A DNA stretch of 64,000 bases from an uncultured virus (IMG/VR IMGVR_UViG_3300011871_000042) (IMGVR_UViG_3300011871_000042), one strand, 5' to 3'. Shown: positions 1,768 through 52,046, counted from the stretch's first letter. Notes: a model not told the origin generated them from the sequence alone. Made by a program: numbers and translations.

Positions 1768-2250
1768 CTATATGTCTTTTTTATGTTTGTTTGTATGATT
1801 TATTGGAACAGGAGTTTCTACTTTATTTTCACTCTCATCTAAAGTAGCTCCCCATGATATTTTATCTCCATTAATATGCTGTTGAAGTATACAAGATAAA
1901 GGCATAGAGTATATTTCATAACTAGCTTGTTGAAGAGCAATAATAAAAGTAGCTGAATCCATTTCGGGAACAGATTCAAAAGCAGATATAATTTTTAAAA
2001 TTTTGTCAGAAGTGTCTAGATTTTCAAGATTTATTTTTTTCTGCAATAGAGAGTTAAACACATATTTTTTCACAGAATGGTATTTCCATGCGGATGTGTT
2101 CGGTAAAGCATTTTGTATCCAAGTAGGAACTAAGTTTATTTCACCTTCTTCACTACCTGATTTGTCGTCGTCTTCCCCCTCTTCCAAGGGGGCAGTTTCA
2201 ACTATTTTAATAGGTCTACTTGGAAATCTGTAACTCTCTTTATTAAGCAT
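1768..2250 (-). CDS. Hypothetical protein
   Basis: 160-aa ORF whose start overlaps the parC stop (TAATG). Confidence 0.65.
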   Translation of the reverse strand: MLNKESYRFPSRPIKIVETAPLEEGEDDDKSGSEEGEINLVPTWIQNALPNTSAWKYHSVKKYVFNSLLQKKINLENLDTSDKILKIISAFESVPEMDSATFIIALQQASYEIYSMPLSCILQQHINGDKISWGATLDESENKVETPVPINHTNKHKKDI

Positions 2251-4631
2251 TAACTATCGTCACCATTATTATCTTCATCAGGTTCATTAACAACATCTTC
2301 TTCTATTATATCTATTTTAAGTTGTTTATCAAATTTAACCCAATTTTGATTTTTATTTATAATTTTACCTTTAGCTGTTGATTTTCTAGCACCCAATACT
2401 TTCTTAATATCTTTATTAACTAAGTCGGCTTTGGTTCCATCTTCACTCACTAATGTAACTTTACCGTCAGCATCCGTCAAGCAAATATCTAATAATGTTT
2501 GATCTTTTGCTAAACCTAGTAACGCAACACCTTTTCCTTTACCAAGTTCTTTAATATCACCTAATGGTAAAGCTACGTTCTTATTATCACTTGTTAACAA
2601 CACTACGGATGTCTCTGCTGTAGCATCTGCTGGAATAGCTACTGGCTCTACTGGTTTTTCATTATCAGCTAATGTTAATATAGCTTTACCTTTTTTCTGA
2701 CGGTTAATCCAATTAGATGCTTTAATAATAAAGCCATATCCATTTTGTCCTGCTAAAATATATTTGTCATCAGGGTTTGAAGAAATAGCTCCTTCTAAAA
2801 TTTTAGCCCCCGTTTCAAACCAACTAATAACAGATTGTTCACCAGTTCTGCCAGAAAGGTCTATTAGGTTTAAACTATAACCTTGTCCATTCTGATCTAA
2901 AAGCATCAATGTATCAGCTCTGGAGCCAATAAATGTTCTACGTATTTTATCTCCAATTTTAACTTTAAAGTCAGAATCTTGTATTGGTCCAAGTTGTTTA
3001 GCAGCTTTCCATGAAATCCAACCTTTTTCTGTTAGTACAACAGCAATAGACTCATTAGATGCTTTATCTTGAACCATATTATCAGTAATATCTTTTGCTG
3101 ATGCTGCTGCCGCTGGCTCAACAAGAGTTCTTCTTTCATCACCAAATACTTTCAAGTCAGCATCAAGCTCTTTAATAGCTACTTTTCTTATATTCGCATC
3201 TGATGATAAAATATCTTCAAGCTCACCTTTCAATCTAGTTAGTTTAGCATGTTCTTCTTCAAGACTGATTTTAGCAAGCCTTGCTAAAGAACGAAGGCGC
3301 ATATCAAGGATATCTTCTGCTTGAATCTCATCAAGTTTAAACTTATCCATTAAATCTTGTTTTGGATTATCAGATTCTTTTAATACTTTTATTACCTTAT
3401 CTATTTTATCAAGAATAGATAAACGTCCATTTAAAATATGAAGTCTTGCATTAGTTTTATTAAGCCTATCAGTAATTCTTCTTCTGATAGTCTCTACACG
3501 ATATGTACACCATTCACCTAACCATTTTAAGATATTTTTATTCGTTGGGCGACCAGTATCATCAACAACAACAAAGTTTAAGTTAGCATTAATTTCAAGA
3601 CTCGTATGAGCAAGAAGTGCTCTAACTAATTCGTCTGGATCTTGTTTTTTATTTTTTGGGGTAATAGTAAGAGCCATTTTTCCATCAGCAGAAAGATCTT
3701 TAATAGATCCAATCATTTCACTAAATATTCTTTTTAAATGAATTTGCTGTGGAGTTAATTGCTTTTTCTTACCTTTTTTATCTACTGTTTGTTGTGGTTC
3801 AACAAGATTAGCTATTTGATTACTAATAGTGCTAATAGAAACTTCATGAGGAAGTTCATAAAATACAATAGCCCAATCTTTCCCTTTCTTTTCAATATTC
3901 CATCTTGCTCTAACTCGAACAGCACCACGTCCTTGTTCATAAACATTATAGATTTCTTCAGGTGAAGATATTATTTGACCTCCTGTAGCAAAATCAGGGC
4001 CTTTAATAATATCCATAATTTCTTTTAATGTTGATTTAGGTTTCTTCAAAAGAAGTTTTGCTGCTTCAACAACTTCACCGATATGATGAGAAGGGAAGTT
4101 TGTCGCCATACCAACACCTATACCATAAGAACCATTTAATAATAAGAATGGTAAACGACTAGGAAGAAGTATAGGTTCTTTTTCAGCACCATCGAAGTTA
4201 GGTTTATAATCAACGGTATCCCATGACAATTCATCAAGCAAACAACTTGCTATTTTTGACATACGGGCTTCTGTATAACGCATAGCAGCAAAAGATTTTG
4301 GTTCATCTCTATCACCCCAATTACCCTGACCATCGATAAGAGGATAACGGATATTAAAGTTTTGAGCCATACCAACCATAGCTTCATACACAGCAGAATC
4401 ACCATGAGGGTGGTATTTACCTATAACATCTCCGACAATACGAGCAGATTTTTTTCTTGGTTTATCCCAATCATTACTAAGAACATGCATAGCATAAAGA
4501 ATACGGCGATGAACAGGCTTAAGACCATCCTGAACGAATGGCAAAGCACGATCTGTTACTACATGCATCGCATATTTCAAATATGCATCTTTAGCATATT
4601 GCCCTAAATCAATAATTTCATTGTTATTCAT
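2250..4631 (-). CDS. parC: DNA topoisomerase IV subunit A
   Basis: [26 protein letters not shown] (catalytic Tyr); no GyrA-box seen; adjacent to parE. Confidence 0.92.
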
Positions 4632-4651: not shown

Positions 4652-6637
4652 TTAATTATCATATTCTACAGTGTTACCATATTCTTCCATCCATTCTTTA
4701 CGAGGAGGAATATTTTTACCCATGATTAGCTCAAAAGCATCTATGGTATCTTGTATGTTTTCAATACCAACTTCAAATAATTTTCTTTGGCTTGGATCCA
4801 TTGTTGTTTCTTTTAACTGATCAGGGTTCATTTCTCCAAGTCCTTTGAAGCGAGAAACTGTCCAGTTGGCATCTGTAAGACCTTCTTTAGCTAAATCTTT
4901 TAAAATACTATCTCTTTCTTGTTCTGTAATAGCATAGAATATCCTATTATCTTTTTTATTACCTTTTGAACCTTTCTTAGCTGGAGCATCTATACGATAT
5001 AAAGGTGGAACACCAATATATATTCTCTTATTCCTTATTAATTCAGGGAAATGCTTTAAGAATAGTGTTAATAATAATACCTGTATATGTAAACCATCTA
5101 CGTCAGCATCAGCAAGGATAATAATTTTACCATAACGTAATTTTGAAAGATCAACCTCTTCTGGTTTTTTATCTTTATGCGCTTCAACTCCAATAGCTAA
5201 AGAAATATCTCCAACAATAAATGCTTTATAAAGATCTTCATCTTTAGCATTCCATGTATTTAATAGTTTACCTCTTAATGGCAATATAGCTTGATACTCT
5301 CTATTACGCCCTTGTTTAGCTGAACCACCTGCGGAATCCCCTTCTACTAAATACAATTCAGTTAACTCTACTTCATCACTTTGACAATCTGAAAGTTTTC
5401 CCGGTAAAGCTGAAATAGAACTTATCTTTTTACGGTCAACTTTACTTGCTTCTTTTGTTCTTCTTGATGCTTCACTTACTACCATTTCAACAATGCTTTT
5501 AGCTTCATCTAAATGATTACTTAACCAAAGCTCTAAAACATCTTTTATTAAAGAGTTTACTAACTTGTTCGCTTGTCTTGATGTTAACTTATCTTTTGTT
5601 TGTCCCTGAAACTGTGGATCAGTTAGTTTTAAAGAAAGAACAAAAGACATTCGTGACCAAATATCATCAGCTTCTATTTTTAATTTGTTAGGTATAAGAT
5701 TTAATCTCTCAGCAAAGTTCTTTATAGCTTCAAAAACACCTGTTCTTAAACCTGCTTCATGTGTTCCTCCTGCTGGAGTAGGTATGAGGTTAACAAAGCT
5801 CTCACGAACAACTTTACCATAATCACTCCATCCTAATGCTAAAGCAAAGCCTTCACCTCGACGGAACTGTTCATTTGTTTCAAGTATATAAGTTTCATTA
5901 AAGAATGGTTCATCAGTTAACCAGTTAGATTCTCCCGCTTCTTCTTTAAGATAATCAGGAATACCATTTTCATAATGCCATTCAAGAGGAGCTTTATTAT
6001 TTTTTTCATAGACAAGAGAAACGCCTGACATTAAAACAGCTTTTGCTTTTAAATATCGTTCCATCTCTGTATTACTAATATTAGGAGAGTCAAAATATTG
6101 ACCATCAGGCCAAGTTTTAACCCTTGTTCCTGTTTTATCTTTTAACTCTGGAGGAAGTTTTTTTCTTTTTAAAGGTTCAACTAAATGACCATTTTCAAAA
6201 GCAAGACTATATTCATATCCATCACGCCATACAGTAGCTTCTAAACGTTTTGATAAAGCATTAGTTACTGAAACACCTACTCCATGTAAACCACCAGAGA
6301 ATTGATATGCTCCATCACCACTTGTTTTATTAAATTTACCACCTGAGTGGAGTTTAGTAAAAATAAGTTCAACAGCAGGTTTGCCTTCTTTTTTATGTNN
6401 NNNNNNNNCACGCCCATTATCTTCTATTGAATAAGCTCCATCATCATATTGTTTTACAATAATTTTAGTAGCAAATCCAGCTAATGCCTCATCTTGAGCA
6501 TTATCGATAACTTCTTGAATGATATGGTTTGGGTTTTCAGTTCGGGTATACATCCCCGGTCTATGTTTGACTGGCTCTAATCCTTCCAATACTTCAATAT
6601 CGTCTGAATCATATTTCTTTTTCTTTTCTGTAGCCAC
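4652..6637 (-). CDS. parE: DNA topoisomerase IV subunit B (contains an N gap)
   Basis: RPGMY, EVIDN, GGLHGVG, VEGDSAGGSAKQ, PLRGK, DADVDG, RFKGLGEMN. Confidence 0.92.
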   Translation of the reverse strand: MATEKKKKYDSDDIEVLEGLEPVKHRPGMYTRTENPNHIIQEVIDNAQDEALAGFATKIIVKQYDDGAYSIEDNGRXXXXHKKEGKPAVELIFTKLHSGGKFNKTSGDGAYQFSGGLHGVGVSVTNALSKRLEATVWRDGYEYSLAFENGHLVEPLKRKKLPPELKDKTGTRVKTWPDGQYFDSPNISNTEMERYLKAKAVLMSGVSLVYEKNNKAPLEWHYENGIPDYLKEEAGESNWLTDEPFFNETYILETNEQFRRGEGFALALGWSDYGKVVRESFVNLIPTPAGGTHEAGLRTGVFEAIKNFAERLNLIPNKLKIEADDIWSRMSFVLSLKLTDPQFQGQTKDKLTSRQANKLVNSLIKDVLELWLSNHLDEAKSIVEMVVSEASRRTKEASKVDRKKISSISALPGKLSDCQSDEVELTELYLVEGDSAGGSAKQGRNREYQAILPLRGKLLNTWNAKDEDLYKAFIVGDISLAIGVEAHKDKKPEEVDLSKLRYGKIIILADADVDGLHIQVLLLTLFLKHFPELIRNKRIYIGVPPLYRIDAPAKKGSKGNKKDNRIFYAITEQERDSILKDLAKEGLTDANWTVSRFKGLGEMNPDQLKETTMDPSQRKLFEVGIENIQDTIDAFELIMGKNIPPRKEWMEEYGNTVEYDN

Positions 6638-6756
6638 GATAACTCCTAATGTCCTTAATATTTAAAGGTAAGATATATAATAATTTTTCTTTTTTCAAAT
6701 TTAAAAAAGGCCCCTGCGAGCCTTTTTTAATATATGAGTCTTTTCTTAAATGTCAA

Positions 6757-7344
6757 TTATCTTTTATTGTTTACAGAATGACCTTTAGCGGCAAAATTAT
6801 TTAACATTCTGACTAATCCTAATGAAAGGGTTCTAATAAATAAAATTGCAAATGTCGATATGATAGCAAAAGCTGCATACAGACCAAACATAGAAACAAA
6901 TTGTGAAAATCCACCAGTAATAAGTGATGTTCTATATTCAGGGAAGCTATAAAGAAAATAAAAACTAAGTAGCACAGGAAGTGAAACATAAAATAGTCCT
7001 GTCGTAATAATACTTATATTCTTAACGATAAACGATATTGGATTGATGAACATTGATAGCCTCTCATAATATGTATGTCCCGCTCCAATGATAACATTCT
7101 TTATCCACATAAAAGCGGTAGGTTTAGTTGGAGCCTTTTCATTAGTTAAATAACTTTCATTTTTTTCTATAACTCTTTCTGGTTTTACAGGTTGAGTTAT
7201 TTCAGGTTGTTCGATTATATTATTATTTTCAGGTAAAAGCGAATTATTTAATTGAACAACATTATTTTGATTTTTCTTTTCTACTATTTCTTTCGTTTGA
7301 TTAAATAGCTCATCTATTTTTATTGTATTTCTAGCTGTATTCAT
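6757..7344 (-). CDS. Hypothetical membrane protein
   Basis: 195 aa with two hydrophobic C-terminal helices. Confidence 0.7.
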   Translation of the reverse strand: MNTARNTIKIDELFNQTKEIVEKKNQNNVVQLNNSLLPENNNIIEQPEITQPVKPERVIEKNESYLTNEKAPTKPTAFMWIKNVIIGAGHTYYERLSMFINPISFIVKNISIITTGLFYVSLPVLLSFYFLYSFPEYRTSLITGGFSQFVSMFGLYAAFAIISTFAILFIRTLSLGLVRMLNNFAAKGHSVNNKR

Positions 7345-7411
7345 AAGTTTTTCGAGTTCACTAAAAGTGTGGGATAGCGCTTTGTAAATACAAACCTTAC
7401 TCGATCTCCTT
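7345..7411 (-). promoter_or_regulatory. Structured RNA element between SD and AUG (copy B)
   Basis: AAGGAGA-UCGAGU...AAAGCGCUAUCCCA...ACUCGA-7 nt-AUG; same architecture as the nadE leader. Confidence 0.7.
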
Positions 7412-7570
7412 TATATTTTTTATGCTATCTTAAAGTTTAAATTAAATATAGTTTCTTCCAAATACAATACTGTCATAAAAATAAATAAGAATTCAAATTT
7501 TATTTTTGATTGACCTTAGACTATATAATTGAGATAATATATAATAGTTAAAATAAAGGAGGGTTTATAA

Positions 7571-8270
7571 ATGCCTGTTATCGTAGCAATTGCCGGACCA
7601 TCAGGAGCCGGGAAAACTGTTTTATCTGGAATGTTAAAAGATGAAGGATACGCTGAAATAGTAAGTGTAACAACTCGTGCTCCCCGCAAAGGAGAGCAAA
7701 ATGGAGTACATTATACTTTTTTAAATGAAGAACAATTTAAAGAACTTCAAAAAAATAATGGTTTAATAGAAAGTGTACATATGAATGGAAACTATTACGG
7801 AGTTCCAGCAGAAGAANNNNNNNNNNGCCATAAGAGTATCTCAAGAAGGTCGTCCAATAGTTGTTGTAGCTGAACCTCATGGAATAGCTCAAATAAATAA
7901 GTATTGTGAAGAAAATGGATGGAAATGCTATAGAGTATTTGTTAATTCACCTATTGAATTACTTATGGAGCGTTTAGAAGACAGATTTAAAAATGATCTA
8001 AGCAATCTAAATGAACAGTCTGAAACATATGAAGCAGATAAGAATAAAGTAATAAAAGCTTATGAATCAAGAAAAGAGCATGTTCTTGTAAAAGAGCAAA
8101 ATGAATGGGTTCGTCCAGCTTATGAAAATCCCGGATTATATGAGGCTGTTTTTGATAAGTTTGATAAATCAGTACAAGAACAAGTATTAGATGTAATCAA
8201 ATTAAACGTCGATTCTTTATTACAGGAAGATAATACTGTAAAAAAAAATAATAGAATGCGTTTCAAGTAA
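7571..8270 (+). CDS. gmk: Guanylate kinase-like protein (split into two ORFs by an N gap)
   Basis: GPSGAGKT P-loop, SVTTRAPRKGE.NGVHY, GNYYG; the frame change coincides with the N run near 7817-7826. Confidence 0.8.
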
Positions 8271-20785: not shown

Positions 20786-22798
20786 ATGTATTCTGAGAAT
20801 GAAAATTATAAAAAATTATTCATAGCATTAAAAAACAATCAATATAATGAGGCAGAAGCTATCTTAAGTCAAGGAGCTGACATAAACTATAAAAATAGTA
20901 GGGGAGAAAATCTATTATGGAAAGCCATTGATTTAAATAATATTGAAATGTTTGAATGGTTAATAAATAAAGGATGTATAATAGAAGCTTTAAATACATC
21001 TAATGAATCATTAATAACCCACGCAATAAATCAGAATAATTTTAATTTTCTATCTTTTATTCTGAATAAAAATAGAAGCAATATAAATAAAATATCATTA
21101 AAAGGATTTTCTCCATTAATGTTGGCCTGTTCTGAAAATAAAAAAGAAGCAATAAAGATTCTTGTAGAGTATGGTTGTGATATAAATATCCAAAATCAAT
21201 ATTTAAATACAGCATTAATAATAGCTATAGCTAAAAGTGATTATGATGTTGTTAGTTTTTTGATAGAAAATGGAGCTAATTTATCATTAGCTAATAATGA
21301 TGGAGATACCGCTTTAATTATCAGTGCAAAATATAGAAAATTAAAAAGTTTAATATATTTACTAAGAAATAGTTCTGAAGAGTTAATAAATAAAAGAAAT
21401 AAATATGGCTCTACAGTAACGAGTTTTATTATTAATAGTCAGTTTTTAGAAAAAACACCAGAAATTGTTATAGATCTTTTAATTGAAAAAAATGCTGATT
21501 TTAACGTTAATATTATTGCTGAAAGATCATCTTCTCCTTTTTTAGAATCTATTAAATCTGGAGATATTAAAACTTTTCTAAAACTTATAAATACAAACAA
21601 TATTGATGTAAATATAACAGATTCAAGCGGGAATGACATCATACATTACTTATGTCTTTATAATTATTTAACTCCAGAGCTTTTAAAAAGAATAATAAAC
21701 TGTGGATATGACGTAAAGAATGTAAAATCAAGAGATGGTTTTACACCATATTATGCTTTGATAAATAATAAATTAGCATATGAAGATATAGAGGAAATTA
21801 TTAAAATATTAAAGGAATATGATTTTAAAAATGCTTATAAAACATTAGATAATGAATATCTATTAAATGCTTGTATTTATAATAGGAAAAAAGAACTATT
21901 AAAACTGTTTTTTAATAACGGCATATTAAATATTAAAGATAGTTATAAAAATGGAAATAAACTTATCCATAAAATTACTGAAATAATAAAAGACAGTGAA
22001 GAAATCGGTATTTTATATCTTGAAGATGAACTCAATTCTGAAAAAGAGAGATTAATAGGAAATGATGACAATGAATATGTAGAGTCAGCTTTAGAGCATA
22101 TAAAAGAACAAGAAAATGAAGTAGAAGAAATGAAAAAAGATATAAAAAGTTTCCTATCTTTTATAATAAAAATTTGTTCTGAAAATGGTATTTCTATTAA
22201 TGATGTTAACGATGAAGGAGATACTCCTTTAATGTTATTAATATCAAGTGGTCAGGCAATAATGTTAGAATACTTTATGGCATATAATCCAAATATACTT
22301 ATTGAAAATGAATATGGTGAAAATTCGCTATGTTATGCTATAAAGTATGGACGATTAGATGTTTTCGAAAAATTGTTTGGTTTGATAAATAATAGTCAAA
22401 ATGAAGCATCTAAGTTATTAGTCAATATTATTTATAATCTTCCTGATGATGAACGAAGAAAAGCGATAACATTAATTACCATAGAAGATATAATAGAAAC
22501 ACTTATGCCTTATATAAATAACTCAGATGAAGATGGTAATACTCCATTAATAATAGCTTGTGCTTTAAATGAAGAACAAATGGTTAAGATATTACTAAAA
22601 TATGGAGCCAATGCTTTGTTAAAAAATAAATCAAATGAAACAGCATTAATGCATGCTTGTTCTAATAATAATATCAATATTGTAAAAGCCCTAATAGAAA
22701 AAGATGTTGATGTAAATGCAAGAAATAACAAAGGTAATTCTGCAATAGATTTAACGACAAATAAAGAGATTGAAGAAATGTTAATAAATAGAAATTAA
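20786..22798 (+). CDS. Ankyrin-repeat protein
   Basis: Multiple G.TPL/TAL..A..LL..GA repeats. Confidence 0.9.
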   Translation: MYSENENYKKLFIALKNNQYNEAEAILSQGADINYKNSRGENLLWKAIDLNNIEMFEWLINKGCIIEALNTSNESLITHAINQNNFNFLSFILNKNRSNINKISLKGFSPLMLACSENKKEAIKILVEYGCDINIQNQYLNTALIIAIAKSDYDVVSFLIENGANLSLANNDGDTALIISAKYRKLKSLIYLLRNSSEELINKRNKYGSTVTSFIINSQFLEKTPEIVIDLLIEKNADFNVNIIAERSSSPFLESIKSGDIKTFLKLINTNNIDVNITDSSGNDIIHYLCLYNYLTPELLKRIINCGYDVKNVKSRDGFTPYYALINNKLAYEDIEEIIKILKEYDFKNAYKTLDNEYLLNACIYNRKKELLKLFFNNGILNIKDSYKNGNKLIHKITEIIKDSEEIGILYLEDELNSEKERLIGNDDNEYVESALEHIKEQENEVEEMKKDIKSFLSFIIKICSENGISINDVNDEGDTPLMLLISSGQAIMLEYFMAYNPNILIENEYGENSLCYAIKYGRLDVFEKLFGLINNSQNEASKLLVNIIYNLPDDERRKAITLITIEDIIETLMPYINNSDEDGNTPLIIACALNEEQMVKILLKYGANALLKNKSNETALMHACSNNNINIVKALIEKDVDVNARNNKGNSAIDLTTNKEIEEMLINRN

Positions 22799-26111: not shown

Positions 26112-26654
26112 TTACATTTTAAGTTTATACTTATTTTCGAAACAACTATCTAAAACAGCCTGATAAGCTTTTCTCCATTTATGATGTTTTTCCCTCACAT
26201 TATTTTTATTAATAAATACTCTATCTGTGCTTTCATGAGATATATTGAAGTCAAGTATTTCAAATTGAGTTACCTTATAAAATAACTCTATGCCTTTTTC
26301 AGGATATCCATTTTCCATAGCAAGTGGAGCATTGGAGTTATCGACTAATATACCACCTATAACTTCATAATTTAAAGGAATAATAGAAGCTTCCTCTCTT
26401 GCCTCTCTAATAAGAGCTTGTTCTGGAGTTTCATCTTTCTCAATATGTCCTCCAATAATATCAATACCTCTATGATTAATAGTAAATAAAACATCATCAT
26501 TCAAAATAGGAAAGCAATGCGATGTTATTATAAAAGAATGAGGAAAAGATAAAACTTCTTCTTTATTCAAGAAATAAAGATCTACTTCACCATATTTAAA
26601 TTGTGTTTTTTCTGTAAAAATCATTTTATAATCCTTTTTTATAAAATTAGCCAC
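26112..26654 (-). CDS. NUDIX hydrolase
   Basis: GGHIEKDETPEQALIREAREEA Nudix box. Confidence 0.85.
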   Translation of the reverse strand: MANFIKKDYKMIFTEKTQFKYGEVDLYFLNKEEVLSFPHSFIITSHCFPILNDDVLFTINHRGIDIIGGHIEKDETPEQALIREAREEASIIPLNYEVIGGILVDNSNAPLAMENGYPEKGIELFYKVTQFEILDFNISHESTDRVFINKNNVREKHHKWRKAYQAVLDSCFENKYKLKM

Positions 26655-27846
26655 ATTGGGTTCCGGCTGTTATATTTTCAAAATTTAGTATTTTTAAATC
26701 GTCTTCATTTATATAAAAACAAAAAGCTCCAGAGTCTCCCCAATACATACCAGTATTTTCTGAGCACATTGTTTGTAATAAAACTCTATCATTACTACCT
26801 AGTTCTTGAACAGGTATTTCATAAGCTAATAAAGAATGCATGGATGTATAATCAAGTGAAATATGGGAATATGTAGCCATATGTTGTAAATCTGAAACAT
26901 CAGTTAATAATTCCAACTCTTCTGCTGTAAGATTAAATTGTTCCAAAATTTTCTCTTCTTTATAAAGAGGATATGAATCAGCATAATCTATATCAATAGC
27001 TACTTCATTTAATTTAAAATAATAATTGTTTTTTCTTTTAAGTTCTGACTTTTCAACATCAAGATAGTAAACTTGATTTGTTCCTTTTTCATCTATTTTA
27101 TCAAGGAAATAAATATAATCATCATAATCTAGATGTGCAACAGCACTAAAAAAATAAAGAAATCCTGTATTTGGTAATAAATTGTCTGACATGTTAGGAT
27201 CTATTTCTGATAAATCTATTTGAGCCAAAAATGTTAATGGTTTATTATCACATGTAGGCCATAAAAAATCTTTTGGTAAATCGGGTTGTCCTCCTAATTT
27301 TGAAGAACCTTTAGTTATTTTTTTATTAATATTCTCAATCAACATAACAGACTTTTTCTTTGTCTTTTCAAAAATATATCTATATTTATCAGCTTGTTTA
27401 TATTCAATAGCCCAATCTAAGATATCTTCTTTACTTAGTTTTTCATTAAATACTTTTTTAAAAAAATCGTAATGATATTGTTTTTTGTAATTGTTATATA
27501 CATTATCATATGATTTTTTTATCAAATAAAATATGAAGTTTTCATTATTCTTATTTATTTTATAAATGGGGATTTCATACCAATTATATTCATCAAGATC
27601 TTCTCCCCATGATCGTTTTTTAGTGTCATAAATTAAATTAGGATAATCTTGTTTATCTTTTTTGTATATTCGTAACAAAATAACATCTTCATAAAACATA
27701 ATAAAATCAGGAATCCCCCAATTAAATATTCTATAAGATAAACAACTTTTAAATACATGTTTTCCTTTTTTTAAACCTCTATATATATTAATTGTAGAAA
27801 AAGGGAGTGAAGCACTATATTCTATAAATTTTTGGCATTTATTCAT
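26647..27846 (-). CDS. YwqG/DUF1963 domain protein with an extra N-terminal domain
   Basis: SKLGGQPDLP..WP..PLTFLAQIDL, LPNTGFLYFF, WGDSG. Confidence 0.8.
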   Translation of the reverse strand: MNKCQKFIEYSASLPFSTINIYRGLKKGKHVFKSCLSYRIFNWGIPDFIMFYEDVILLRIYKKDKQDYPNLIYDTKKRSWGEDLDEYNWYEIPIYKINKNNENFIFYLIKKSYDNVYNNYKKQYHYDFFKKVFNEKLSKEDILDWAIEYKQADKYRYIFEKTKKKSVMLIENINKKITKGSSKLGGQPDLPKDFLWPTCDNKPLTFLAQIDLSEIDPNMSDNLLPNTGFLYFFSAVAHLDYDDYIYFLDKIDEKGTNQVYYLDVEKSELKRKNNYYFKLNEVAIDIDYADSYPLYKEEKILEQFNLTAEELELLTDVSDLQHMATYSHISLDYTSMHSLLAYEIPVQELGSNDRVLLQTMCSENTGMYWGDSGAFCFYINEDDLKILNFENITAGTQCG

Positions 27847-33763: not shown

Positions 33764-33881
33764 ATATATTCCTTTTATTTATAATCAATAATTTTTTGTA
33801 ACATTATATTTAATTATAAATCGAAATAAAAAAAAGGAAAGCCTACCACAAGTGATAGGCTTGATTTTATTAGTTGTATAT

Positions 33882-35588
33882 TTAATCTAAAAGTTTAGAA
33901 ACTGTATTTTCTGAGATAAATGTCTTCCTCGCAATAGGAATATTTCTTCCCAATCCAAATGTATTGCTTCTTACGCGAATAATAGGGCAAGATTGTTTTC
34001 TTTTAAATTCTGCGAGTTCAACTTTCTTAAGGATTTCCATTCCCTTTTCATGGCTAAATTTATTTTCTCTCAAAAACTCTTTACGTTTAAGAATACTTTC
34101 TTCATCCATAGATTTACCTTCAAGATAAAGCTGTAAAAAAGCATCAAGAATAGGGTAATCAGGTAAAGAATCTTGATCAGTCTGTCCCGGAAATAGTTCC
34201 GCTGATGGTGCTTTTTCAATAACAGAACGAGGCATTTTACCAAGATCAGCATAATGTTCCAGCATTCTGTAAACTTCTGTTTTATAGAGATCTCCAATAG
34301 GGTTTAAACCACCATTAGTATCGCCATAAAGCGTACAATAACCAACAGAGACTTCACTCTTATTACCTGTAGACAATACAAGAGAGTTATCCTGATTAGA
34401 CCATGCCATAATAGATGTTCCACGGATACGAGCTTGTAGGTTTTCCATAGTTAAACGGTTAGGCTCCTGACCAAAAGCAGTCTTAAATGCCTCAACAGCA
34501 GCTTGGAAATCATCTTTACTAGGCCGCTCCTAAAGTTTGACACCCAACATTTCAGCAAGTGCCTGACTGTCTGTAACACTACCAGCAGAAGAAATCTGAC
34601 TTGGCATCGTTACTGCTGTAATATTATCAGCCCCTAAAGCATCAACAGCTAATGCTAATACTAAAGAACTATCCGCACCACCAGACAATGCTAAACTTGC
34701 TCTTTTAATACCATTCTTATAGAAAAAATCCCTAATTCCCATAACCAACTGATGTTTTACAAATCCTATCCACTGCTCATTGTCAGTATCAATACTTGCA
34801 TCTTTATCAAATACAGATTCTCCAAGCCATTTCGTATCAAATGATTGTGTATCGACAGTTAAAACACCTTCTGAAAAGAAAGGAGCTTGTTTAATCTCAC
34901 CATTAGGTAAAGCAATATAGCTACCACCATCAAAAACAATAGTATCATTACCACCAACTTGATTCACAGAAATGTAAGGAATTTGTTTTTCTTTAGCAAT
35001 ACCCCCAAAGATCTTTTTCCTTAAATGATTTTTACGCAAACTTGACGGAGATGCGTTAATAGATAAATAAAAATCGATACCTTCACTTGCCAGATCATTA
35101 ACAGGGTTTACTTTATATGAACCATCAGTATTCCAACCATCCTCACAAATAAGAACACCAACATGATGCTCATTCAAAGAAATACTTTCAGATTTTTCTC
35201 CCGCTTCGAAATAACGATTTTCATCAAATACATCATAAGTCGGAAGAAGGCGTTTTACTGCAACAATTTTTACATTTTTACCATCTAGTAAGACAGCCTG
35301 ATTTTCATGAGACTTACCGTATAAGCGAGTATTAATTCCAACACGTCCTACAATAGCTTTTTGATTTCTTGAAGCTAACCATGAATTTAATTCATTAATA
35401 ACACTATTTTGTTCATCTAAAAAATCCTGACGATGAATCATGTCATTGATTTGATATCCACTGAAAGTTAACTCTGGACCAACCAAAAGATGATCGCATG
35501 GTACATTCAAAGCAAGTTCCTTGAATTTTTCCAGATTCCCTTTAAAATCACCAACAGTAGAATTTAATTGAATAAGAGCTATTTTCAT
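33882..35588 (-). CDS. nadE: Glutamine-dependent NAD+ synthetase, interrupted by one in-frame TAG at 34530-34532
   Basis: Nitrilase domain (PEL, KRLLP.YDVFDE, ICED) + LSGGADS, ENLQARIRG, TGNKSE, PSAEL; the two listed ORFs are in the same frame (..GVKL*ERPSKDDF..LTMEN). Confidence 0.9.
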
Positions 35589-35650
35589 ATTATTTTGCAG
35601 AAACTTATTACTAAGTTGGGATAGCCGCTTTCGCCCCTTCTGCTCTCCTT
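35589..35650 (-). promoter_or_regulatory. Structured RNA element between SD and AUG of nadE (copy A)
   Basis: AAGGAGA-GCAGA...AAAGCGGCUAUCCCA-ACUUA GUAA UAAGU-U-UCUGC-8 nt-AUG. Confidence 0.7.
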
Positions 35651-35723
35651 TTTATTTTGCTATCTTTTTATATATTTTATGGTTCTTTTTAATCTGATTA
35701 AAATAAGCCCCGAAGGGCCTATT

Positions 35724-36923
35724 TTATTTAGCTAACTCTGGCTTGAAAACATGAGTTAAATAGTTAACGTAATCCTGATCATCACTCATTGTTTTACCTA
35801 CAGCATCAGACAACTTAGCCACAGGAAGATCATTACAACGAACCATTTTAAGAACTACCTGTAGCGCTTTAACACCCACATCATTCGTTAAATCTGTACC
35901 AATACCAAAGTTTGGTTTACAACGTTCTACAAAATAATCATGTAAATCTAACATTTTAGGAATATTCAAACCATCAGAGAACGTAAAAGTCTTCGTTAAT
36001 GGGTCAATACGATTATTTTTGTAATGCTGGATAATAGTATCACCCCAAACTTTTGGATCACCAGAGTCATGACGAACACCATCAAATAACTTACAGAAAT
36101 ACAAATCAAAATCTTTAAGGAAAGCATCAAGACCAATAACATCAGTCAAAGCAATACCTAAATCACCACGATATTCCTGCGCCCATGCTTCAAAAGCGAA
36201 TTTCTGGAAATAACGAAGAGTTGGACCAAGAACCTGACAAGCCTGAAGATATTCATGAGCCATTGTTCCAATAGGTGTTAAACCAAGTTCTTTAGCCATC
36301 CATACGTTGCTAGTACCAGTAAAGCTTTCTGGAAGAGCTTCTTTCAATGTTTTTACTACTTCAAAATGCCATTCACCATTAAAACGACGACGAGTACCAA
36401 AATCAGAAAAACTCAACTTTTTATTATTTGGATGAGATTTAATAACTTCAATTTTCTGCTGTAGACGTTTACGACCTTCTACATACAGTTCTTCTTTATC
36501 AAGATCTTCATAGTGAATCTGATTAATAATTGCTAAGATATAGATTTCAAAAAGAATAGTCTGAACCCAAGGGCCTTTAACAATAATATCAACAGAGTCT
36601 GGACGAACAAGTGATGGTTTAACAGTCACATATTTTCTTTGAAGCTTAAAGTTTCTCAAAAAGTCAACAAAGTCAGCTTTCATATAACGAAGGGAACCAA
36701 GATAGCTCAATTCATCTTCTGTGAAAGTAAGAGAACAGATATGATCAATCTCTTCATTAATGCGAGCCAAATCATTTACTAAACCTGCATTTTCTGTGCG
36801 GCAACGGAAATGATATTCAACGTTAGCGCCAGAAAAGTTATGAAGTACAGTTTGCATCATAGTAAATTTATAAAGGTCTGTATCTGTAAGGTGTTCAATA
36901 GCATGTGGGTATTTAATAGTCAT
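35724..36923 (-). CDS. pncB: Nicotinate phosphoribosyltransferase
   Basis: DTDLYKFTM, DFGTRRR, GTSNV, GTMAHE, GVRHDSGDP, FSDGL, FGIGT, AKLSD. Confidence 0.95.
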   Translation of the reverse strand: MTIKYPHAIEHLTDTDLYKFTMMQTVLHNFSGANVEYHFRCRTENAGLVNDLARINEEIDHICSLTFTEDELSYLGSLRYMKADFVDFLRNFKLQRKYVTVKPSLVRPDSVDIIVKGPWVQTILFEIYILAIINQIHYEDLDKEELYVEGRKRLQQKIEVIKSHPNNKKLSFSDFGTRRRFNGEWHFEVVKTLKEALPESFTGTSNVWMAKELGLTPIGTMAHEYLQACQVLGPTLRYFQKFAFEAWAQEYRGDLGIALTDVIGLDAFLKDFDLYFCKLFDGVRHDSGDPKVWGDTIIQHYKNNRIDPLTKTFTFSDGLNIPKMLDLHDYFVERCKPNFGIGTDLTNDVGVKALQVVLKMVRCNDLPVAKLSDAVGKTMSDDQDYVNYLTHVFKPELAK

Positions 36924-36983
36924 ATTTTTCTCTCTTTTTTAAGTTGTTTAGTATCTTAACCGATGAATAGAGTATACACCAAG

Positions 36984-38115: not shown

Positions 38116-39240
38116 TTAGGAGGCTTTTCTTTTATCTTCTAAGTATTTAAATATCACATCAGCATCTTGTGATAATGGGAGTAGTTCTGATGCAATATTA
38201 CCATTAATATTTTCTATAGTTAAATCACATCCTCTTTCAACTAATATTTGAATGAAATTAAAATCTGCATTTTTACAGGCGAAAAAAATAGCTGATTCTT
38301 TATATTTCCCTGATAAATAATCTATATTAACTTTACTAATTAGGTATTTGAAAACATTCGTTGCGTTTAATAAAACTGATAAACTTAAAAGAGAAATATC
38401 TCGTTCGTCTGAAATATTATAATTTATATAATCAGGATTGATTTTTTTAATTGTCTCATAAGGATTATTAATTATTGTGTTAAAATTCTGTTCATTATTA
38501 TCATAAAATGCTAAAATATTTACATCATCTGTAATAATACTAAGAACCAAAAGATTGACATTATTTAAATAAGATTTTTTAGAAATAACAGTTTTTAACT
38601 CATTTAGCCATGATGAATCACCATATAAAATAATTAAATCAGCCCAAGAAAAAGAAAATTTATCTTCAAAATAGAATATTGTACCTCGCCCATTCAGAGA
38701 CTTAATAACATCTAATACGACAACTACTTTTTCATCAGAAGGTTTATGCTGTATAATATTTTTAACTATTTCTATTTTCTTTTTGATAATCGAATAACGT
38801 GTTTTATTATTAATATTAAAATTCATGTAAAAAAAACTATTTTGAAGATTATGGTCAATAAAAATCATGTCCGATATATGATAAAAATTAGATGTTGAAA
38901 TAATTTTTTCATTAATGATTTTGCGTTTAAAAAAGACGTGTTTATCTATAAAAAGCTGATTAATCATAAAATCAAGTACATTAATATCATTGTTTATAGA
39001 ATCCATAAAATTATAGTAAAGTTCTGGTTGTCTTTCTTTAAAAACTGACAAAACATTAAGATTTTCAGAAAATTTTATTTCATATTTGGATTCTTTATAA
39101 AAATAAAATTGAGCAGGGATGTCTTCATATAAACTAAATAAAAGAGTAGCAATATCTTTTACACAATTAAAAAACACTTTACTATTTGTAATAGGGGGAA
39201 AATTATAATTATAATCTGGTATTTTCCATTTTTTTAACAT
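38116..39240 (-). CDS. Protein with C-terminal ankyrin repeats
   Basis: SAIFFACKNADFNFIQILVERGCDLTIENINGNIA. Confidence 0.7.
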   Translation of the reverse strand: MLKKWKIPDYNYNFPPITNSKVFFNCVKDIATLLFSLYEDIPAQFYFYKESKYEIKFSENLNVLSVFKERQPELYYNFMDSINNDINVLDFMINQLFIDKHVFFKRKIINEKIISTSNFYHISDMIFIDHNLQNSFFYMNFNINNKTRYSIIKKKIEIVKNIIQHKPSDEKVVVVLDVIKSLNGRGTIFYFEDKFSFSWADLIILYGDSSWLNELKTVISKKSYLNNVNLLVLSIITDDVNILAFYDNNEQNFNTIINNPYETIKKINPDYINYNISDERDISLLSLSVLLNATNVFKYLISKVNIDYLSGKYKESAIFFACKNADFNFIQILVERGCDLTIENINGNIASELLPLSQDADVIFKYLEDKRKAS

Positions 39241-45175: not shown

Positions 45176-46713
45176 TCAATTATTAATGAATATTAAATCA
45201 TCAATTGATGTTGTGATAAAAGGAATAAAGGGATTAAACAATATCAAATACCTCTGTAATATCATTAAGCCCTCAATAGCAATGTCTTTGTTATTATTCC
45301 ATAATTCCTTTTTATTTTGTTCAATCCAATAGTCACAAAAGTAAGATCTGAAATGATTCTGAAGCTGCCTTGAACAAGTAGAAAATTTATCCTTTGAAAG
45401 CAAATCATACCATGTTTCTGTGATTTTGTCCATTTCTGATGAAATGAAATCCCTCTCTTTTATATCCTTTTTATTATCTATAAAATAGGTATGCATATTA
45501 ATAAATCTTGATGCTTGCCATATTTTATTAATAAATTTCTTTTCTTCATTTAGCCAATCAAGATTAAATTTTATATCTAATCCGGGTTCTGTATGATTAC
45601 ATAATGTCCATCTTAGGCAATCAGCACCATGAGACTCTATACAAAGTAAAGGATCTATTCCGTTCCCCAAAGATTTAGACATTTTCTTATTATTTTTATC
45701 TCTTATTATTCCATGTAAATAAATTTCATTAAAGGGATATTTACCTGTGATTAATTTACACATCATTAACATTCTTGCACACCAAAAGAAAATAATATCA
45801 TCCGCTGTTTCAAGCCATGAGCAAGGATAAAATTGTTCAAAATCGGTTGTTTTGTGAGGCCATCCAAGAATTGCTGCAGGCCATATAGAAGATAAAAACC
45901 ATGTATCAAAAGTAAAGTTTTCTTTTATCCAGTTGGGATCACTGTGATCTATATCGCTAAAACGAGCTGTACGCTCTTCTAATGAGTTATAAGCTATAGG
46001 GATAGGCAAACCCCAAGGTATCTGTCTTGATATGCACCAAGGCTCTATATTTTTAAGAAAACTGATCAGTGTATTTTTACCACTTTCAGGAGTAATTTTA
46101 ATTATACCAGATTCAAGATCTTTTAAAAGCTCTTGAGCTAAATTAGTCATATCTAAATAATACTGATTATTTTCTCTATACAACATTCCATTTTCATAAC
46201 AAATATCAAAAGCTTTCAGAGAAGATTTTTTATATTCTTCATCAAGTGTAAAACGTTCTTTATTCCAGTTACAGGAAGCTCCCATACTAAAAATCTGAGT
46301 TTTTATTCTGCGTTGATAAAAATCTTTCCAAATATTGGCTTCTTCAAAATAAGCAGAAAGATCGTTAGGATCTAAATTTTTCTCATTCATTGAAAGTAAT
46401 ATTTTTTCATGAGTTGCTAAACCTGCATGATCCGTTCCCGGAATCCACAATGAATTATTCCCAATAATAGTATTAAATCTGGTTTTAATATCTTGTAATG
46501 TTAAGAACAATGAGTGTCCTAAATGTAATTGACCTGTAATATTAGGTGGTGGCATTGGTAGGAACCAATTTTGTTTTTTATGATTAGGTAAAGACAGTTT
46601 GAAGTGATTTAAAAGATCTTGCTGAGGATTATTTCCCCATTTTGAAATTAATCTAGATTCCTCAGATTGGAAATCAAAGAATTTATTTAGTTCATTACGT
46701 TTAACTGTGTCAT
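45176..46713 (-). CDS. valS: Minimal valyl-tRNA synthetase (no CP1 editing domain or C-terminal coiled coil); start is out of frame
   Basis: PPPNITGQLHLGH, PGTDHAG.AT, WCISRQ, DTWF.S, FFWCARM, KMSKSLGN; the frame is open about 53 codons upstream of 46555 with FDFQSEE..SKW but has no in-frame ATG/GTG/TTG. Confidence 0.85.
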
Positions 46714-46957
46714 AGCATCCTCCTATTTATTTTTACTTGACGAAAAAATAATAAAATATTTCAAAGTAATTTTCAATTGTTTTTTACGTATTTTTTGAAA
46801 AAATAATCTTCCAAGAAATCCAAAATTTGTACCTATTTTTTAAAACCAAAATTTTACCTTAGAAGAAAAACTGTAATTAAATTATAATTAAGAATTAATT
46901 AAGGGGGAAAAAAAGGCTATTTTTTCTTTAATATTCAATAAGATAAAAATACGAACA

Positions 46958-47139: not shown

Positions 47140-47224
47140 AAAGGAGAAATAAAAAAGTTGTTAAAAATAATATTTTGACGTATGATAAAAACTTTAAATA
47201 TATAATATCGTAATAGGGTTAAAA

Positions 47225-48271
47225 ATGGAAAAAGAATTAGAGTTAGAAAAAGAAAGTGTCATTAATAAGAATAAAATAAAAATAATAAAACCCGCCATAA
47301 TAATAGCAGCAGATAATATAGAAAGTAAGGTAGAAAATGAAGAATTGACACCTTGGCCTATTGTAAGGAATTTCGGCATTCCTAATAAAATGTTAAGAAG
47401 TGCCTTGTTTGGAATTCAAAGAGAAAGGTCGGGAGTAGTTCCAGTTGATGATATGATTATTCCATGTCCTGAAGGAACTAAAATAAAGTATTCTGGACCA
47501 GTATTAAATCAGGATGATTCTTTGGTTTGGCAAATGATTGTTAGAGCTATTAGACAGAATAAAGCGCCTATGGGAGGATTAATTCAGCTATCTTCTCAAG
47601 AGATGTTAAAAGTATTAGATAGAACAGATGGTGGCCCTAATTTTTTATGGTTAAAATCATGTTTAGATAGATTAACAAAAGCTCATATTGTTATAGATAC
47701 ACCTAATGACGAAATAAGAAGTCATTTATTAGTAGGATATAGAGTAGATAAAAAGACAAAAAAAATAAACGTAGGAATAAGTGCTCTCCTTTATCCATTA
47801 TTTATTGGAGATCTTACTGATATTGATGTTATTAGAAAAACAAAGTTAAAAAGTCAAATATCAAGATGGCTTCATGATTTTTATTCTTCTCATTCAGAAC
47901 CTGTTCCTTATACTATTCAGAGGATTCAGGAACTATCAAGATCTAACAAACAAACAAGTAAGTTTAGAAAAATGATAGAAGGTGCAATAGAAGAGTTAAA
48001 ATATTGTGATCCTCCTCTTTTCACAGAAGATAGCTATTTAGATAAAAAAACAGATCAGCTTATTATCTATAAAGCAACTAATAGCCCCGGAGAAGCTCCT
48101 AAAAAAGTTTATGAGGCTAAATCAATAAAAACCATAGAAAGTAAATCAGATAAGAATTCAAGAGATGTAGAGTTAATAATGCATAGATTTAATATGACAG
48201 AAGAAGAAGTCGTATCACTAAATAATAGAGATTTTAAAAATTTACTTCAAAGCTTAAAACTAGCTTTATAA
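47225..48271 (+). CDS. trfA: TrfA-family plasmid replication initiator
   Basis: PN.MLRSALFG, IKYSG..LNQDD.LVW, R.DGG.N...L..CLDRL, WLH.FYSSH..P.P; next to iterons. Confidence 0.8.
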   Translation: MEKELELEKESVINKNKIKIIKPAIIIAADNIESKVENEELTPWPIVRNFGIPNKMLRSALFGIQRERSGVVPVDDMIIPCPEGTKIKYSGPVLNQDDSLVWQMIVRAIRQNKAPMGGLIQLSSQEMLKVLDRTDGGPNFLWLKSCLDRLTKAHIVIDTPNDEIRSHLLVGYRVDKKTKKINVGISALLYPLFIGDLTDIDVIRKTKLKSQISRWLHDFYSSHSEPVPYTIQRIQELSRSNKQTSKFRKMIEGAIEELKYCDPPLFTEDSYLDKKTDQLIIYKATNSPGEAPKKVYEAKSIKTIESKSDKNSRDVELIMHRFNMTEEEVVSLNNRDFKNLLQSLKLAL

Positions 48272-49880: not shown

Positions 49881-52046
49881 TTATTTTGAAATTTCAACAT
49901 CATTTAATGTGGCAGAAACAATAACCTCATTTGTAATCCCTTCAGGTTTTATTGTTAAAGTATTATCATCTAATCCATCCATATCACTAAACCAGCAATG
50001 TCCAACAATAATACAAAACTTAATTTTTGCCAACTCATTATTTAAACTTCTTGTCTTTTTAACTGCTGAATCAGCTTCGCTATCAAGCCAAGTAATAAGA
50101 AGTGCTTGAGGATCGGCAGCATTTTTATAAATATCAGATTGTTTAAATTCTTGTACTCTTTTTATTGCTCTTGCCATCACTTCTTCTCTTAATGTTAATG
50201 ATTTTTTCTCATTAAGTTTCTTTTCAACATCATCTACTTTAGGGAGACTTGATAAACCTTTAACACTAATATTCATTTCTTTAGCTAAATAAACATCACC
50301 AGAAGATACAGATGTTGTTGATGGACTAAAACCACTATAATCTGTAAGTCCTACGCTCTTAAGCCATTCTGCAGCCTCTTTTCCATAAATAACAGTATAT
50401 CCTTGGCTTGTTTTTTCAACAAGTTGAGCTTTATAGAACTTAAATACTTTTTGATCACCTTTTAAATATTCCAATTCAAAAGCTTTTGCAAAAGTCTCTT
50501 TAGCTGAAACTTTCTTAACCATATTTCTATTAATAATAGGAAGTTTAGAAACATCTAAGCTATATATTTTTTTCTCTTGATAAACTTCATTTTCCAACAA
50601 TCCATGAGATTTTAGGGTATTAAAAGTTTCTTCTGAAAGAGAAACAGGCAATTTTCTACTATGAACAATACCATCTTTAATTATAGTGTAGTTTCTATAT
50701 ATGAATGATGGGAATTTTTCTGGTAAATTTTTAAATGGTTTGTCTAAAGGTAAAGAAACAAAACCTTCAATTTTTACGTTAACAGAAATATTTGGTCTTT
50801 TTTCATTATAAACAAGACTTCTCATAGGAACGCCCGGATTATCATCATATGCTGTAAATTTAAAACTATCATCTTTTGCTACAGTTTCTTTCCCAATGCT
50901 TTGATAGTTAAATGACTTATCAAATGGATAGAAATAGTTTCCTTCATTGCTAATAAGTAAATTTATCGCATCAAGAACAGTATAAGCATCTTCATTTGGG
51001 ATAGCATTAGGATCTCTACCTTCTAAGAACCTTTCTTTTTCATTAAATGCCAATAAAAGACATTCATTGTAAAAGTCATTATAATCTTGTTTACTAAAAC
51101 AGTTTACAAAATGGTTAACAAGTTTTACATCAGCCAAAGATTTTAGGGTATCGAATATTTCATCAGTTTTTAATCTTTGTGCAAGAGTAGCAAGACCAAC
51201 ATATGTTAATACATCGACAGGATCTTCTACACCATCTACACCATCATTAAAATAAGCAATGAATTCTGTAGTGTCAGGAAGTAATACTTCATTATTTTCA
51301 TCTACAGAAAATGTTTGAACGTTATGTTCACTATCAAAAGTAAAAGCATATCCAAGCTTAGGAGTATGATCTAATTTAACTTGAATTTTCTTTATTGCAA
51401 AGCCGGGACGAAGAAGTTGGTTCTCGAAACTTGCTTCATAATCGACAAAGTGTTCATTAAATACAAGTTGTCCTCCAACGGTTTCAGCCATTTGAGAAAG
51501 AAGTTTTCTATTACAGTTCCATCCATATTCAATAAATGTAGCACTTGCTAATTCTTTCTGTAATGGAGCAACGACATTTAATATTTCCTGTGTTTTCCAT
51601 TCATTATCATATCCATCTGTCATAAAGAATAAAGAAAATACACCAGTAGAGTCATTTTGCTTAATTCTTTTTATTACTTGAGCGGCCTCTTCAAGAGGTT
51701 GCTTAAATCCTGTAAGACCAACAGGTTGTAAAAACTTATCGATTGCGGCATTTAATTTTGTAAGATCCGTTACTTTTTTAACGGGAACAGCTTCTTGCAA
51801 TACACCAAATTGGTTTTTACCACTAAACCAAATTAAGGTAATAGTATCTTTTTCTTTTACTAATGTAGGAAGCTTATTTTTTAATTGCTTTCTTAATTCA
51901 GGAAGATCGTGATACATAGATCCAGAGCAATCAATAACAGCTATATGATGAGTTGGGACGTTTTTAGGTTTTGGAGCATCTTCTTTTTTTATTGATTGTA
52001 TTGATAATCCTAGATTTTTAGATAATCTTATATTTTTACTTTGCAT
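49881..52046 (-). CDS. von Willebrand factor A domain protein
   Basis: MIDAS motif DCSGSM, T, FMTDG. Confidence 0.85.
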   Translation of the reverse strand: MQSKNIRLSKNLGLSIQSIKKEDAPKPKNVPTHHIAVIDCSGSMYHDLPELRKQLKNKLPTLVKEKDTITLIWFSGKNQFGVLQEAVPVKKVTDLTKLNAAIDKFLQPVGLTGFKQPLEEAAQVIKRIKQNDSTGVFSLFFMTDGYDNEWKTQEILNVVAPLQKELASATFIEYGWNCNRKLLSQMAETVGGQLVFNEHFVDYEASFENQLLRPGFAIKKIQVKLDHTPKLGYAFTFDSEHNVQTFSVDENNEVLLPDTTEFIAYFNDGVDGVEDPVDVLTYVGLATLAQRLKTDEIFDTLKSLADVKLVNHFVNCFSKQDYNDFYNECLLLAFNEKERFLEGRDPNAIPNEDAYTVLDAINLLISNEGNYFYPFDKSFNYQSIGKETVAKDDSFKFTAYDDNPGVPMRSLVYNEKRPNISVNVKIEGFVSLPLDKPFKNLPEKFPSFIYRNYTIIKDGIVHSRKLPVSLSEETFNTLKSHGLLENEVYQEKKIYSLDVSKLPIINRNMVKKVSAKETFAKAFELEYLKGDQKVFKFYKAQLVEKTSQGYTVIYGKEAAEWLKSVGLTDYSGFSPSTTSVSSGDVYLAKEMNISVKGLSSLPKVDDVEKKLNEKKSLTLREEVMARAIKRVQEFKQSDIYKNAADPQALLITWLDSEADSAVKKTRSLNNELAKIKFCIIVGHCWFSDMDGLDDNTLTIKPEGITNEVIVSATLNDVEISK

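Follow-up and report, generated by a model that had tools for sequence, protein, structure and literature searches.

In the known classes of riboswitch the aptamer lies upstream of the Shine-Dalgarno (SD) sequence or overlaps it, and ribosome-binding sites that are bridged by RNA structure are textbook curiosities from two genes of phage T4. In T4 gene 38 a hairpin shortens the distance between SD and AUG from 22 to 5 nt and in gene 25 from 27 to 11 nt, and destabilizing mutations lower initiation, according to a review (PMC3014915, covering Nivinskas et al., 1999; Malys & Nivinskas, 2009). For Escherichia coli thrS and rpmE, two further papers describe a ribosome that accommodates a stable operator hairpin within the initiation region (PMC7297116, PMC3936740).

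The locus considered here precedes nadE in a 64,000 nt stretch of DNA recorded as an uncultured virus (IMGVR_UViG_3300011871_000042), the whole of which we refer to as the window. We consider it probable that this element is a structured leader RNA that forms a split ribosome-binding site, with several helices and an invariant core, and that it recurs across genes and lineages. Searches of the literature on split ribosome-binding sites and on parE, riboswitch and RNA motifs found no description of this motif; the 5' UTR of Vibrio cholerae parE appears as the candidate 'RLE0226' in PMC2836559.

The leaders of nadE and orf195

On the minus strand, 5' to 3', the nadE leader is composed of an upstream block, an A-rich linker, an SD sequence, a 47 nt element, 8 nt and the AUG; from the SD onwards this is exactly what the initial annotation described, and the upstream block is an addition to it. 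The block (AAGATAGCA / AAGAUAGCA, 35658..35666), whose GAUAGC (35659-35664) is exactly complementary to the GCUAUC of the core, is separated by the short linker from the SD AAAGGAGA (35644..35651, with AAGGAGA at 35644-35650). The 47 nt insert (35597..35643) forms a three-way junction in both its minimum free energy (MFE) and its centroid fold. The closing helix P1 pairs GCAGA (35639-35643), which adjoins the SD without a gap, with UCUGC (35597-35601); one A separates the 5' strand of P1 from a G-run (35635-37) that is able to pair with CCC (35618-20). The GC-GAAA-GC mini-hairpin (35627-35634) is followed by a single G, the core GCUAUCCCA (35617-35625), the P3 hairpin ACUUA-GUAA-UAAGU (35603-35616), one U and the 3' strand of P1, from which the A/U spacer AAAAUAAU (8 nt, 35589..35596) leads to the AUG (35586-35588). 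The pair probability of P1 is 0.95-1.0 for a leader that stops at the AUG; it falls to 0.56-0.64 once coding sequence beyond the AUG is added to the fold, and the SD can then pair elsewhere.

The gene itself encodes a glutamine-dependent NAD+ synthase by Pfam and NCBIfam (33882..35588, minus strand; a 568-codon frame). The AUG is its true start: MK[IL]AL stands here at the N-terminus of all six relatives retrieved (P0001, P0002, P0006, P0007, P0009 and P0012; 56-99% identical). A protein scan of species genomes returned only an unrelated nadE of Eubacteriaceae, with 23% identity. The frame carries an in-frame TAG at 34530-34532 (minus strand), where the relatives (P0001 and others, 568 aa) have Tyr, and two more residue differences lie just downstream of it; the TAG could be a nonsense mutation, a sequencing error or a site of read-through.

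A second copy had been reported before the gene at 7344, and it is real: the core is the same, and P1 is built from UCGAG (7400-7404) and CUCGA (7352-7356), all on the minus strand. The gene, orf195 (6757..7344, minus strand), encodes a membrane protein for which no family or fold match was found, and lies upstream of parE (4652..6637) and parC (2250..4631). Its leader begins with the same AAGATAGCA / AAGAUAGCA block (7423..7431) and SD AAAGGAGA (7405..7412), followed by a 53 nt structured insert (7352..7404). Directly after UCGAG comes UAAGG, the GG of which is at 7395-96, and then the hairpin UUUGU-AUUU-ACAAA (7381-7394), separated by GC from the core GCUAUCCCA (7370-7378). P3 is CACU-UUU-AGUG (7359-7369), with AA between it and CUCGA, and the 7 nt spacer AAAACUU (7345..7351) precedes the AUG at 7342-7344. 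Within the window AAGATAGCA / AGATAGCA is exact only in these two leaders (two exact among 61 matches with at most one mismatch), and GCTATCCCA is exact three times, in the two leaders and once inside the ORF at 49881..52046.

The position of the insert is as regular as its content. In these two leaders and in a third, that of parE in record G001 described below, P1 follows GGAG(A) at a distance of 0-1 nt, and between its end and the AUG there are 8 nt in nadE, 7 nt in orf195 and 9 nt in G001 parE. The linear distance from SD to AUG is 56 nt for nadE (from the last G of GGAG to the A of AUG), 61 nt for orf195 (from GGAG to AUG) and 48 nt for G001 parE, and with the predicted P1 closed it becomes approximately 9, 8 and 9 nt, the spacing of ordinary genes in the window; the claim that the nadE spacing is canonical only when the element folds out is thus upheld. 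GGAG, GAGG and AGGA are absent within 20 nt of both window AUGs, in line with the earlier remark that nadE has no other SD near its start. In the mechanism that we propose, an SD 48-61 nt from the AUG of the linear mRNA would be too far away to act, and closure of P1 would bring the two to within 8-9 nt of each other so that the 30S subunit would see a normal ribosome-binding site. The element would then be a family of leader RNAs, 39-53 nt in length, set exactly between a strong SD and the start codon and folded as a three-way junction of P1, a G-run/CCC arm that may carry an extra hairpin of variable size, and P3. Translation would then depend on the fold.

A near SD (GGAG, GAGG or AGGA at -6 to -20) accompanies 37 of the 62 listed ORF starts and is missing from the other 25, so SD-independent initiation probably occurs in the window. 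This bears on a different reading, in which the fold is real and serves as a repressor site, an mRNA-stability or processing element or a standby platform, with SD-independent initiation at the A/U-rich proximal region. The proximal spacers are indeed A/U-rich, and noncontiguous translation initiation regions with an operator hairpin are described for thrS and rpmE (PMC7297116, PMC3936740). However, in all three leaders a strong AAAGGAG abuts P1 at 0-1 nt and P1 ends 7-9 nt from the AUG, a geometry for which a stability element or a plain operator has no need. Against it also stands a leader in the same genome, that of pncB (36917..36957, minus strand), which reads AAGAUA.., an A-rich stretch, AAGAGAG, AAAAAU and AUG, and thus has the same layout of AAGAUA, A-rich stretch, purine SD and AUG minus the insert. 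We regard this other role as unlikely and retain the split ribosome-binding site as the preferred reading.

Copies in metagenomes and in a second lineage

A metagenome scan with the pattern AAGGAG-N14-36-AAAGCG-N0-1-CTATCCCA gave 59 loci, four of which (L016, L026, L029 and L033) are true leaders of an orf195 orthologue, with synteny to parE, orf195, gmk and recA kept; the other 55 were judged to be chance matches, many of them coding for (E)KRYP. The leader of L033 is identical to that of the window, L016 equals L029 over the leader, and L026 is distinct. Because the pattern needs at least 14 nt from AAGGAG to AAAGCG, the scan misses leaders of the nadE type, in which this distance is 13 nt, and also those of the G001 type, in which AAAGCG is absent; it therefore undercounts. 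In two of the metagenome loci, L004 and L039, repeated TAGGAAAGCG units come after a perfect palindrome, GGATAGCGCTTTCC...GGAAAGCGCTATCC, an arrangement unrelated to the leader motif.

In 60-column windows over 7329-7418 the copy-2 leader is 88-95% identical between the window and L026 or L029. In the same comparison identity is approximately 75-85% in most coding windows of recA and parE and 30-68% over much of the intergenic and orf195 sequence that flanks the leader; the upstream AAGATAGCA / AAGAUAGCA block is a conserved island amid variable sequence. None of the 26 modelled stem nucleotides differs among the window, L026 and L029, and the differences that do occur are an A/C in J1/2, a 1 nt indel in the P2 loop (L2), and changes in the P3 loop and its fourth pair (U-A, U.G or G.A). 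At the level of these alignments, the copy-2 leader is shown to be under strong purifying selection.

The neighbouring DNA yielded some observations of its own. The intergenic region 6638-6756 (minus strand), upstream of parE, is 97-98% identical to L026 and L029, above any coding part. Besides a TTGACA-17-TATATT promoter it has two hairpins, one of GGCTCGCAGGGGCC with a T-run behind it and one of CCTT...AAGG immediately ahead of AGGAG-GTG, and it may act as a second leader that regulates parE. The window contains masked runs of N at 7817-7826, 6399-6408, 23968-24047 and 43005-43014, and the first of these, 10 N long, accounts for the apparent split of guanylate kinase (7571..7873 and 7785..8270); L026 has an intact gmk of 228 aa.

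Other readings of the inserts were tried and rejected. A MITE or a palindromic repeat of RPE or Correia type does not fit, the ends being different in every copy and the copies few. An upstream ORF or leader peptide is not encoded in the nadE leader, which has no start codon after the SD; in copy 2 the UUG frames differ among the window, L029 and L026, and because 1 nt indels shift the frame between these orthologues both an upstream ORF and an N-terminal extension are ruled out. Candidate hexamers for a sigma-70 promoter inside the insert are poor and, by eye, not conserved, and a promoter search listed none there.

A scan of IMG/VR with GATAGCA-N4-20-AAGGAG-N8-38-GCTATCCCA, a pattern that specifies no stems, gave two loci, one of them real: L063, in the 215 kb record G001 (IMGVR_UViG_2903405734_000002). 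The other, L064, lacks P1, P3 and the 9 nt spacer and has nothing else in common with the leaders. Of two further scans of viral contigs, one gave two chance matches and the other gave 17, the single real one being G001 again. Its leader reads GAUAGCA, a linker, AAAAAGGAG, UCGGA, GGGG, U, GCUAUCCCA, CUUGC-AAA-GCAAG, UU, UCCGA, GUAACAAUC and AUG, with P1 formed by UCGGA and UCCGA, P3 by CUUGC-AAA-GCAAG and 9 nt between P1 and the AUG; the sequences of the stems are new. The gene that follows is parE (932.7 bits against a cut-off of 723.35), then parC, with RecG, DnaE and TopB encoded nearby. G001 ParE is 45% identical to the window ParE, and its nearest named relatives, at 63-64%, are from Alteromonas and Vibrio; the contig is gammaproteobacterial. 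IMG/VR classes G001 as a 90%-complete virus, but since it encodes ParE, ParC, DnaE, RecG and TopB it looks like a fragment of a bacterial chromosome and not a phage. It also encodes an EAL protein. In E. coli K-12, parE lies 28 nt after yqiA, without such a leader.

The G001 copy has no extra hairpin and can be drawn as GGGGU-GCU-AUCCC or with GGG closing a 7 nt loop. It therefore represents the minimal form, in which a short G/C arm has the 'core' as its loop and 3' strand, and the nadE and orf195 copies are this minimal arm with an additional hairpin inserted in its loop. A promoter, TTGACA-17-TACAAT, matches sigma-70 at 11 of 12 positions 145 nt upstream of the AUG; the 5' UTR predicted from it includes the SD, GAUAGCA and the junction. 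Folding of this whole predicted 5' UTR gives the junction as its MFE structure and also as its centroid (z -2.06; 5 of 200 shuffles are as good); GAUAGC sits at the tip of a hairpin, so that a loop-loop contact is also possible.

Absence of further copies from relatives had been set beforehand as a test on which the proposal could fail; copies were found both in metagenome contigs, as orthologues of copy 2, and in G001. Their number and form bear on the suggestion that a small palindromic mobile element of MITE or RPE type happened to insert into two leaders, and that what is left of it is tolerated because it folds out. The element does resemble an insertion relative to the pncB leader, and P1 supplies terminal inverted repeats. 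However, the repeats are entirely different from copy to copy and it is the interior core that stays constant, the reverse of what a transposable element shows; the copies number only two in 64 kb, one exact core in the 215 kb of G001 and one pattern match in each of three contigs of 866, 453 and 164 kb; and the orthologues are conserved under strong constraint and the element is present in a lineage with 45% ParE identity. Such an origin is very improbable. The possibility that the nadE element is a processed mini-insert, which the initial annotation had also entertained, found no backing: contigs from two RNA and two DNA runs cross the leader with no joint, indel or variant in 35589-35650, although this is weak evidence, as these are contigs and DNA carry-over is possible; they contribute no covariation, nor do they establish that the leader is transcribed.

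G001 has a pncB gene (start at 102167) with a nadE-like gene next to it at 103587. The pncB leader (102050-102170 in G001; 2050-2170 in L070) has ACTATCCCA 15 nt before the ATG, with AGATAGTAT, which contains the AGATAG motif, and GAACTATC around a TTGACA promoter, and is without the architecture of SD and P1. The core-like motif there could be due to chance, or could be a link of NAD genes to the motif at the level of DNA or RNA.

Pairing, chance and competing folds

Common to all copies are AAAGGAG, the invariant GCUAUCCCA and the upstream GAUAGCA, and the AAGATAGCA block is invariant across all five distinct leader sequences. P1 and P3 differ in sequence and nevertheless stay complementary in the three independent leaders. 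When the variable segments were shuffled with the anchors fixed (20000 shuffles per leader), a P1 of at least 5 bp together with a P3 of at least 4 bp was reached in 2.2% of shuffles for nadE, 5.0% for the leader at 7344 and 4.1% for G001. The shared fold is beyond chance, and pure chance is unlikely as an explanation. The free-energy z-scores of the window copies, -1.36 to -0.28, are not significant and were counted against structure; that of the G001 copy is about -2. A loose descriptor of SD, helix and AUG fits 46 of the 2501 ATGs of the window, so a bridging helix alone is not rare, and a generic descriptor of this kind, applied to the window and to G001 (with many internal coding matches in the latter), revealed no other genuine gene start that has the core.

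A covariance model (R1) was built from the three copy-2 orthologues only, with P1, P2 and P3 as its structure. In the window it places the nadE leader second among 31 matches, at full length, with 26.3 bits (E 0.019) and every P1 and P3 pair compensated; when that alignment was modelled by sequence only (R3), the nadE leader scored 8.2 bits (E 0.18) and ranked third of 45, over part of its length only. The alignment of the five distinct leaders and the pncB leader (A7) was fitted to the model and hence leans towards it; in it 56 of 56 cells pair and seven of the 13 pairs change on both sides (11 cells), whereas 27-47% of cells pair in controls in which the 3' partners were slid by one to three columns. 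The covariation comes from three independent leaders in two lineages, too few for statistics of the R-scape type, and GAUAGC, GCUAUCCCA and the G-run/CCC pairing never vary and thus contribute none. Together, R1 and the pairing in A7 support the description of a structured insert between SD and AUG with a conserved core and stems that are different yet complementary. The best other match of both covariance models is the window pncB leader with the whole insert deleted (23.4 bits, E 0.19-0.21), which is not significant alone. A model designated R2 found no third copy in the 64 kb window and, in G001, which has one exact core in its 215 kb, no copy beyond the one. The view that the element belongs to no known riboswitch class is consistent with Rfam, in which no family matches it even at E values of up to 10: at the gathering score Rfam 15 has no match in the 64 kb window, the best weak matches over the window leaders are far below gathering (for example 17.9 against 72), L026 and L029 have none at E of 1 or less, and none of four weak matches in L063 overlaps the element.

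These results also weigh on an explanation at the level of DNA, namely that the GATAGC(A)/GCTATC inverted repeat is a pair of transcription-factor operators flanking the start of the transcribed region, the hairpins being incidental. It would account for the invariance of GATAGC and GCTATCCCA in all copies without covariation, and for the motif before G001 pncB, which occurs outside any SD-P1 arrangement as a DNA site would. It leaves unexplained the compensatory changes of P1 and P3 in three independent leaders, the fixed register of P1 relative to the SD and 7-9 nt from the AUG, and the gain of 18 bits from modelling pairs; moreover, the stems of the orthologues are fully conserved while the loops vary, the half-sites are 26, 34 and 45-46 nt apart, and a 1 nt indel lies beside the core. 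We therefore think operators an improbable account of the motif and continue with the split ribosome-binding site.

If the leader works in that way, competition between folds could make it a switch. A fold enforced by pairing GAUAGC with GCUAUC and the P1-junction fold are 1.1-4.4 kcal/mol apart, and which of them wins varies by sequence: the junction does so in the two window copies, and the competing fold, which also buries the SD, is the MFE structure in L029 and L026, where the probability of P1 is 0.06-0.34 if GAUAGC is transcribed. The invariant upstream GAUAGC(A) is a candidate switch strand. The core and this upstream complement would be the handle for a shared factor, whether a ligand, a protein or temperature or ions, which would move the RNA back and forth between ON (the folded form) and OFF (the competing one). 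The invariance of the core across genes and lineages suggests that something reads it, and control of the element by a ligand or a protein is plausible, while the gene context of the copies indicates no particular ligand or protein.

The genes concerned are nadE, orf195 upstream of parE-parC and, in G001, parE-parC directly; it is therefore the link to topoisomerase IV that is conserved, with nadE added in the lineage of the window. A switch driven by a shared factor would co-regulate nadE and the topoisomerase IV locus. The regulon that the initial annotation had envisaged thus gains members through the further copies, but it is small (two copies in 64 kb and one in the 215 kb of G001) and combines nadE with topoisomerase IV genes instead of comprising NAD genes alone. 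More speculative, and in our judgement rather doubtful, is an RNA switch of a new class, with its sensing fold placed between SD and AUG: the GCUAUCCCA/GAUAGC core would bind a signal from the cell, be it an ion, a protein or a metabolite of nucleotide type, and this binding would fold the junction and assemble the ribosome-binding site. Such an ON switch would co-regulate parE-parC and nadE in at least two proteobacterial lineages.

Genomic context and comparison with known systems

The window has a GC content of approximately 30%, and on ParE its organism is assigned to a deep, AT-rich, betaproteobacteria-like lineage, the best named matches being 53-54% identical. A plasmid-type replicon module is present on DNA that also carries rpoD, recA, parC/parE and recJ: about eight iterons of TAGCYACTCACTACGGTAAAA, mostly 21-22 nt apart (46949-47153, plus strand), lie directly upstream of a TrfA-family replication initiator (47225..48271, plus strand; PF07042, E 1.8e-13). 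A plasmid collection gave only similarity to pncB coding sequence. The ORFs at 20786..22798, 38116..39240, 26647..27846 and 45176..46555 comprise two ankyrin-repeat proteins, a DUF1963 protein and an apparent fragment of a class I aminoacyl-tRNA synthetase, and these genes and the low GC content fit a host-associated, eroding genome. DNA near-identical to 33880-36930 occurs in runs of 15 studies (20 rows, some of which may be the source sample) that cover wastewater, gut, groundwater, insects, biofilm, soil and plants; the organism is widespread.

Should the preferred reading hold, the split ribosome-binding-site logic of T4 would occur as a recurring, sequence-conserved module in bacterial chromosomes, before essential genes for topoisomerase IV and NAD synthase, and an invariant core in two distant lineages invites a trans-acting signal. 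If translation is truly dependent on the fold, folding of the RNA between SD and AUG would set the output of the leader, which would make it a compact natural part and, for synthetic biology, a design that is easy to test. In uncultured genomes rich in AT, genes annotated without an SD may hide a distant one that would be functional under the split-site model.

The element resembles translational ON riboswitches built on small junctions or pseudoknots (purine/add, preQ1 and SAM-II, for example) in its small size, its predicted variable helices around invariant nucleotides, its closeness to the SD and a putative competing pairing. It differs from them in having no Rfam match and in its order, which is SD, aptamer-like fold and AUG; we know of no other example of this order, and the geometry of folding between SD and AUG is, to our knowledge, absent from current riboswitch catalogues.

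According to the sources cited at the outset, thrS and rpmE share with these leaders a structure inside the ribosome-binding region; theirs is stable and serves as a regulatory operator. Their hairpin divides an A/U-rich enhancer from an SD that is beside the AUG, whereas here the fold lies between SD and AUG. Their regulator is the gene's own product, and since the genes behind the present element differ, autoregulation by one product is unlikely.

Closest are T4 genes 38 and 25, in which, as here, the SD is too remote from the AUG, no proximal SD is present and an intervening fold restores the spacing, a restoration that in our leaders is predicted. The T4 folds are single hairpins, each before one phage gene, whereas the present element is a multi-helix junction of 39-53 nt with an invariant 9 nt core and an upstream complement, and recurs before unrelated chromosomal genes (nadE, orf195 and parE) in two lineages at 45% ParE identity. 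It is this multi-helix junction with an invariant core, placed before different genes in distant lineages, that is new here.
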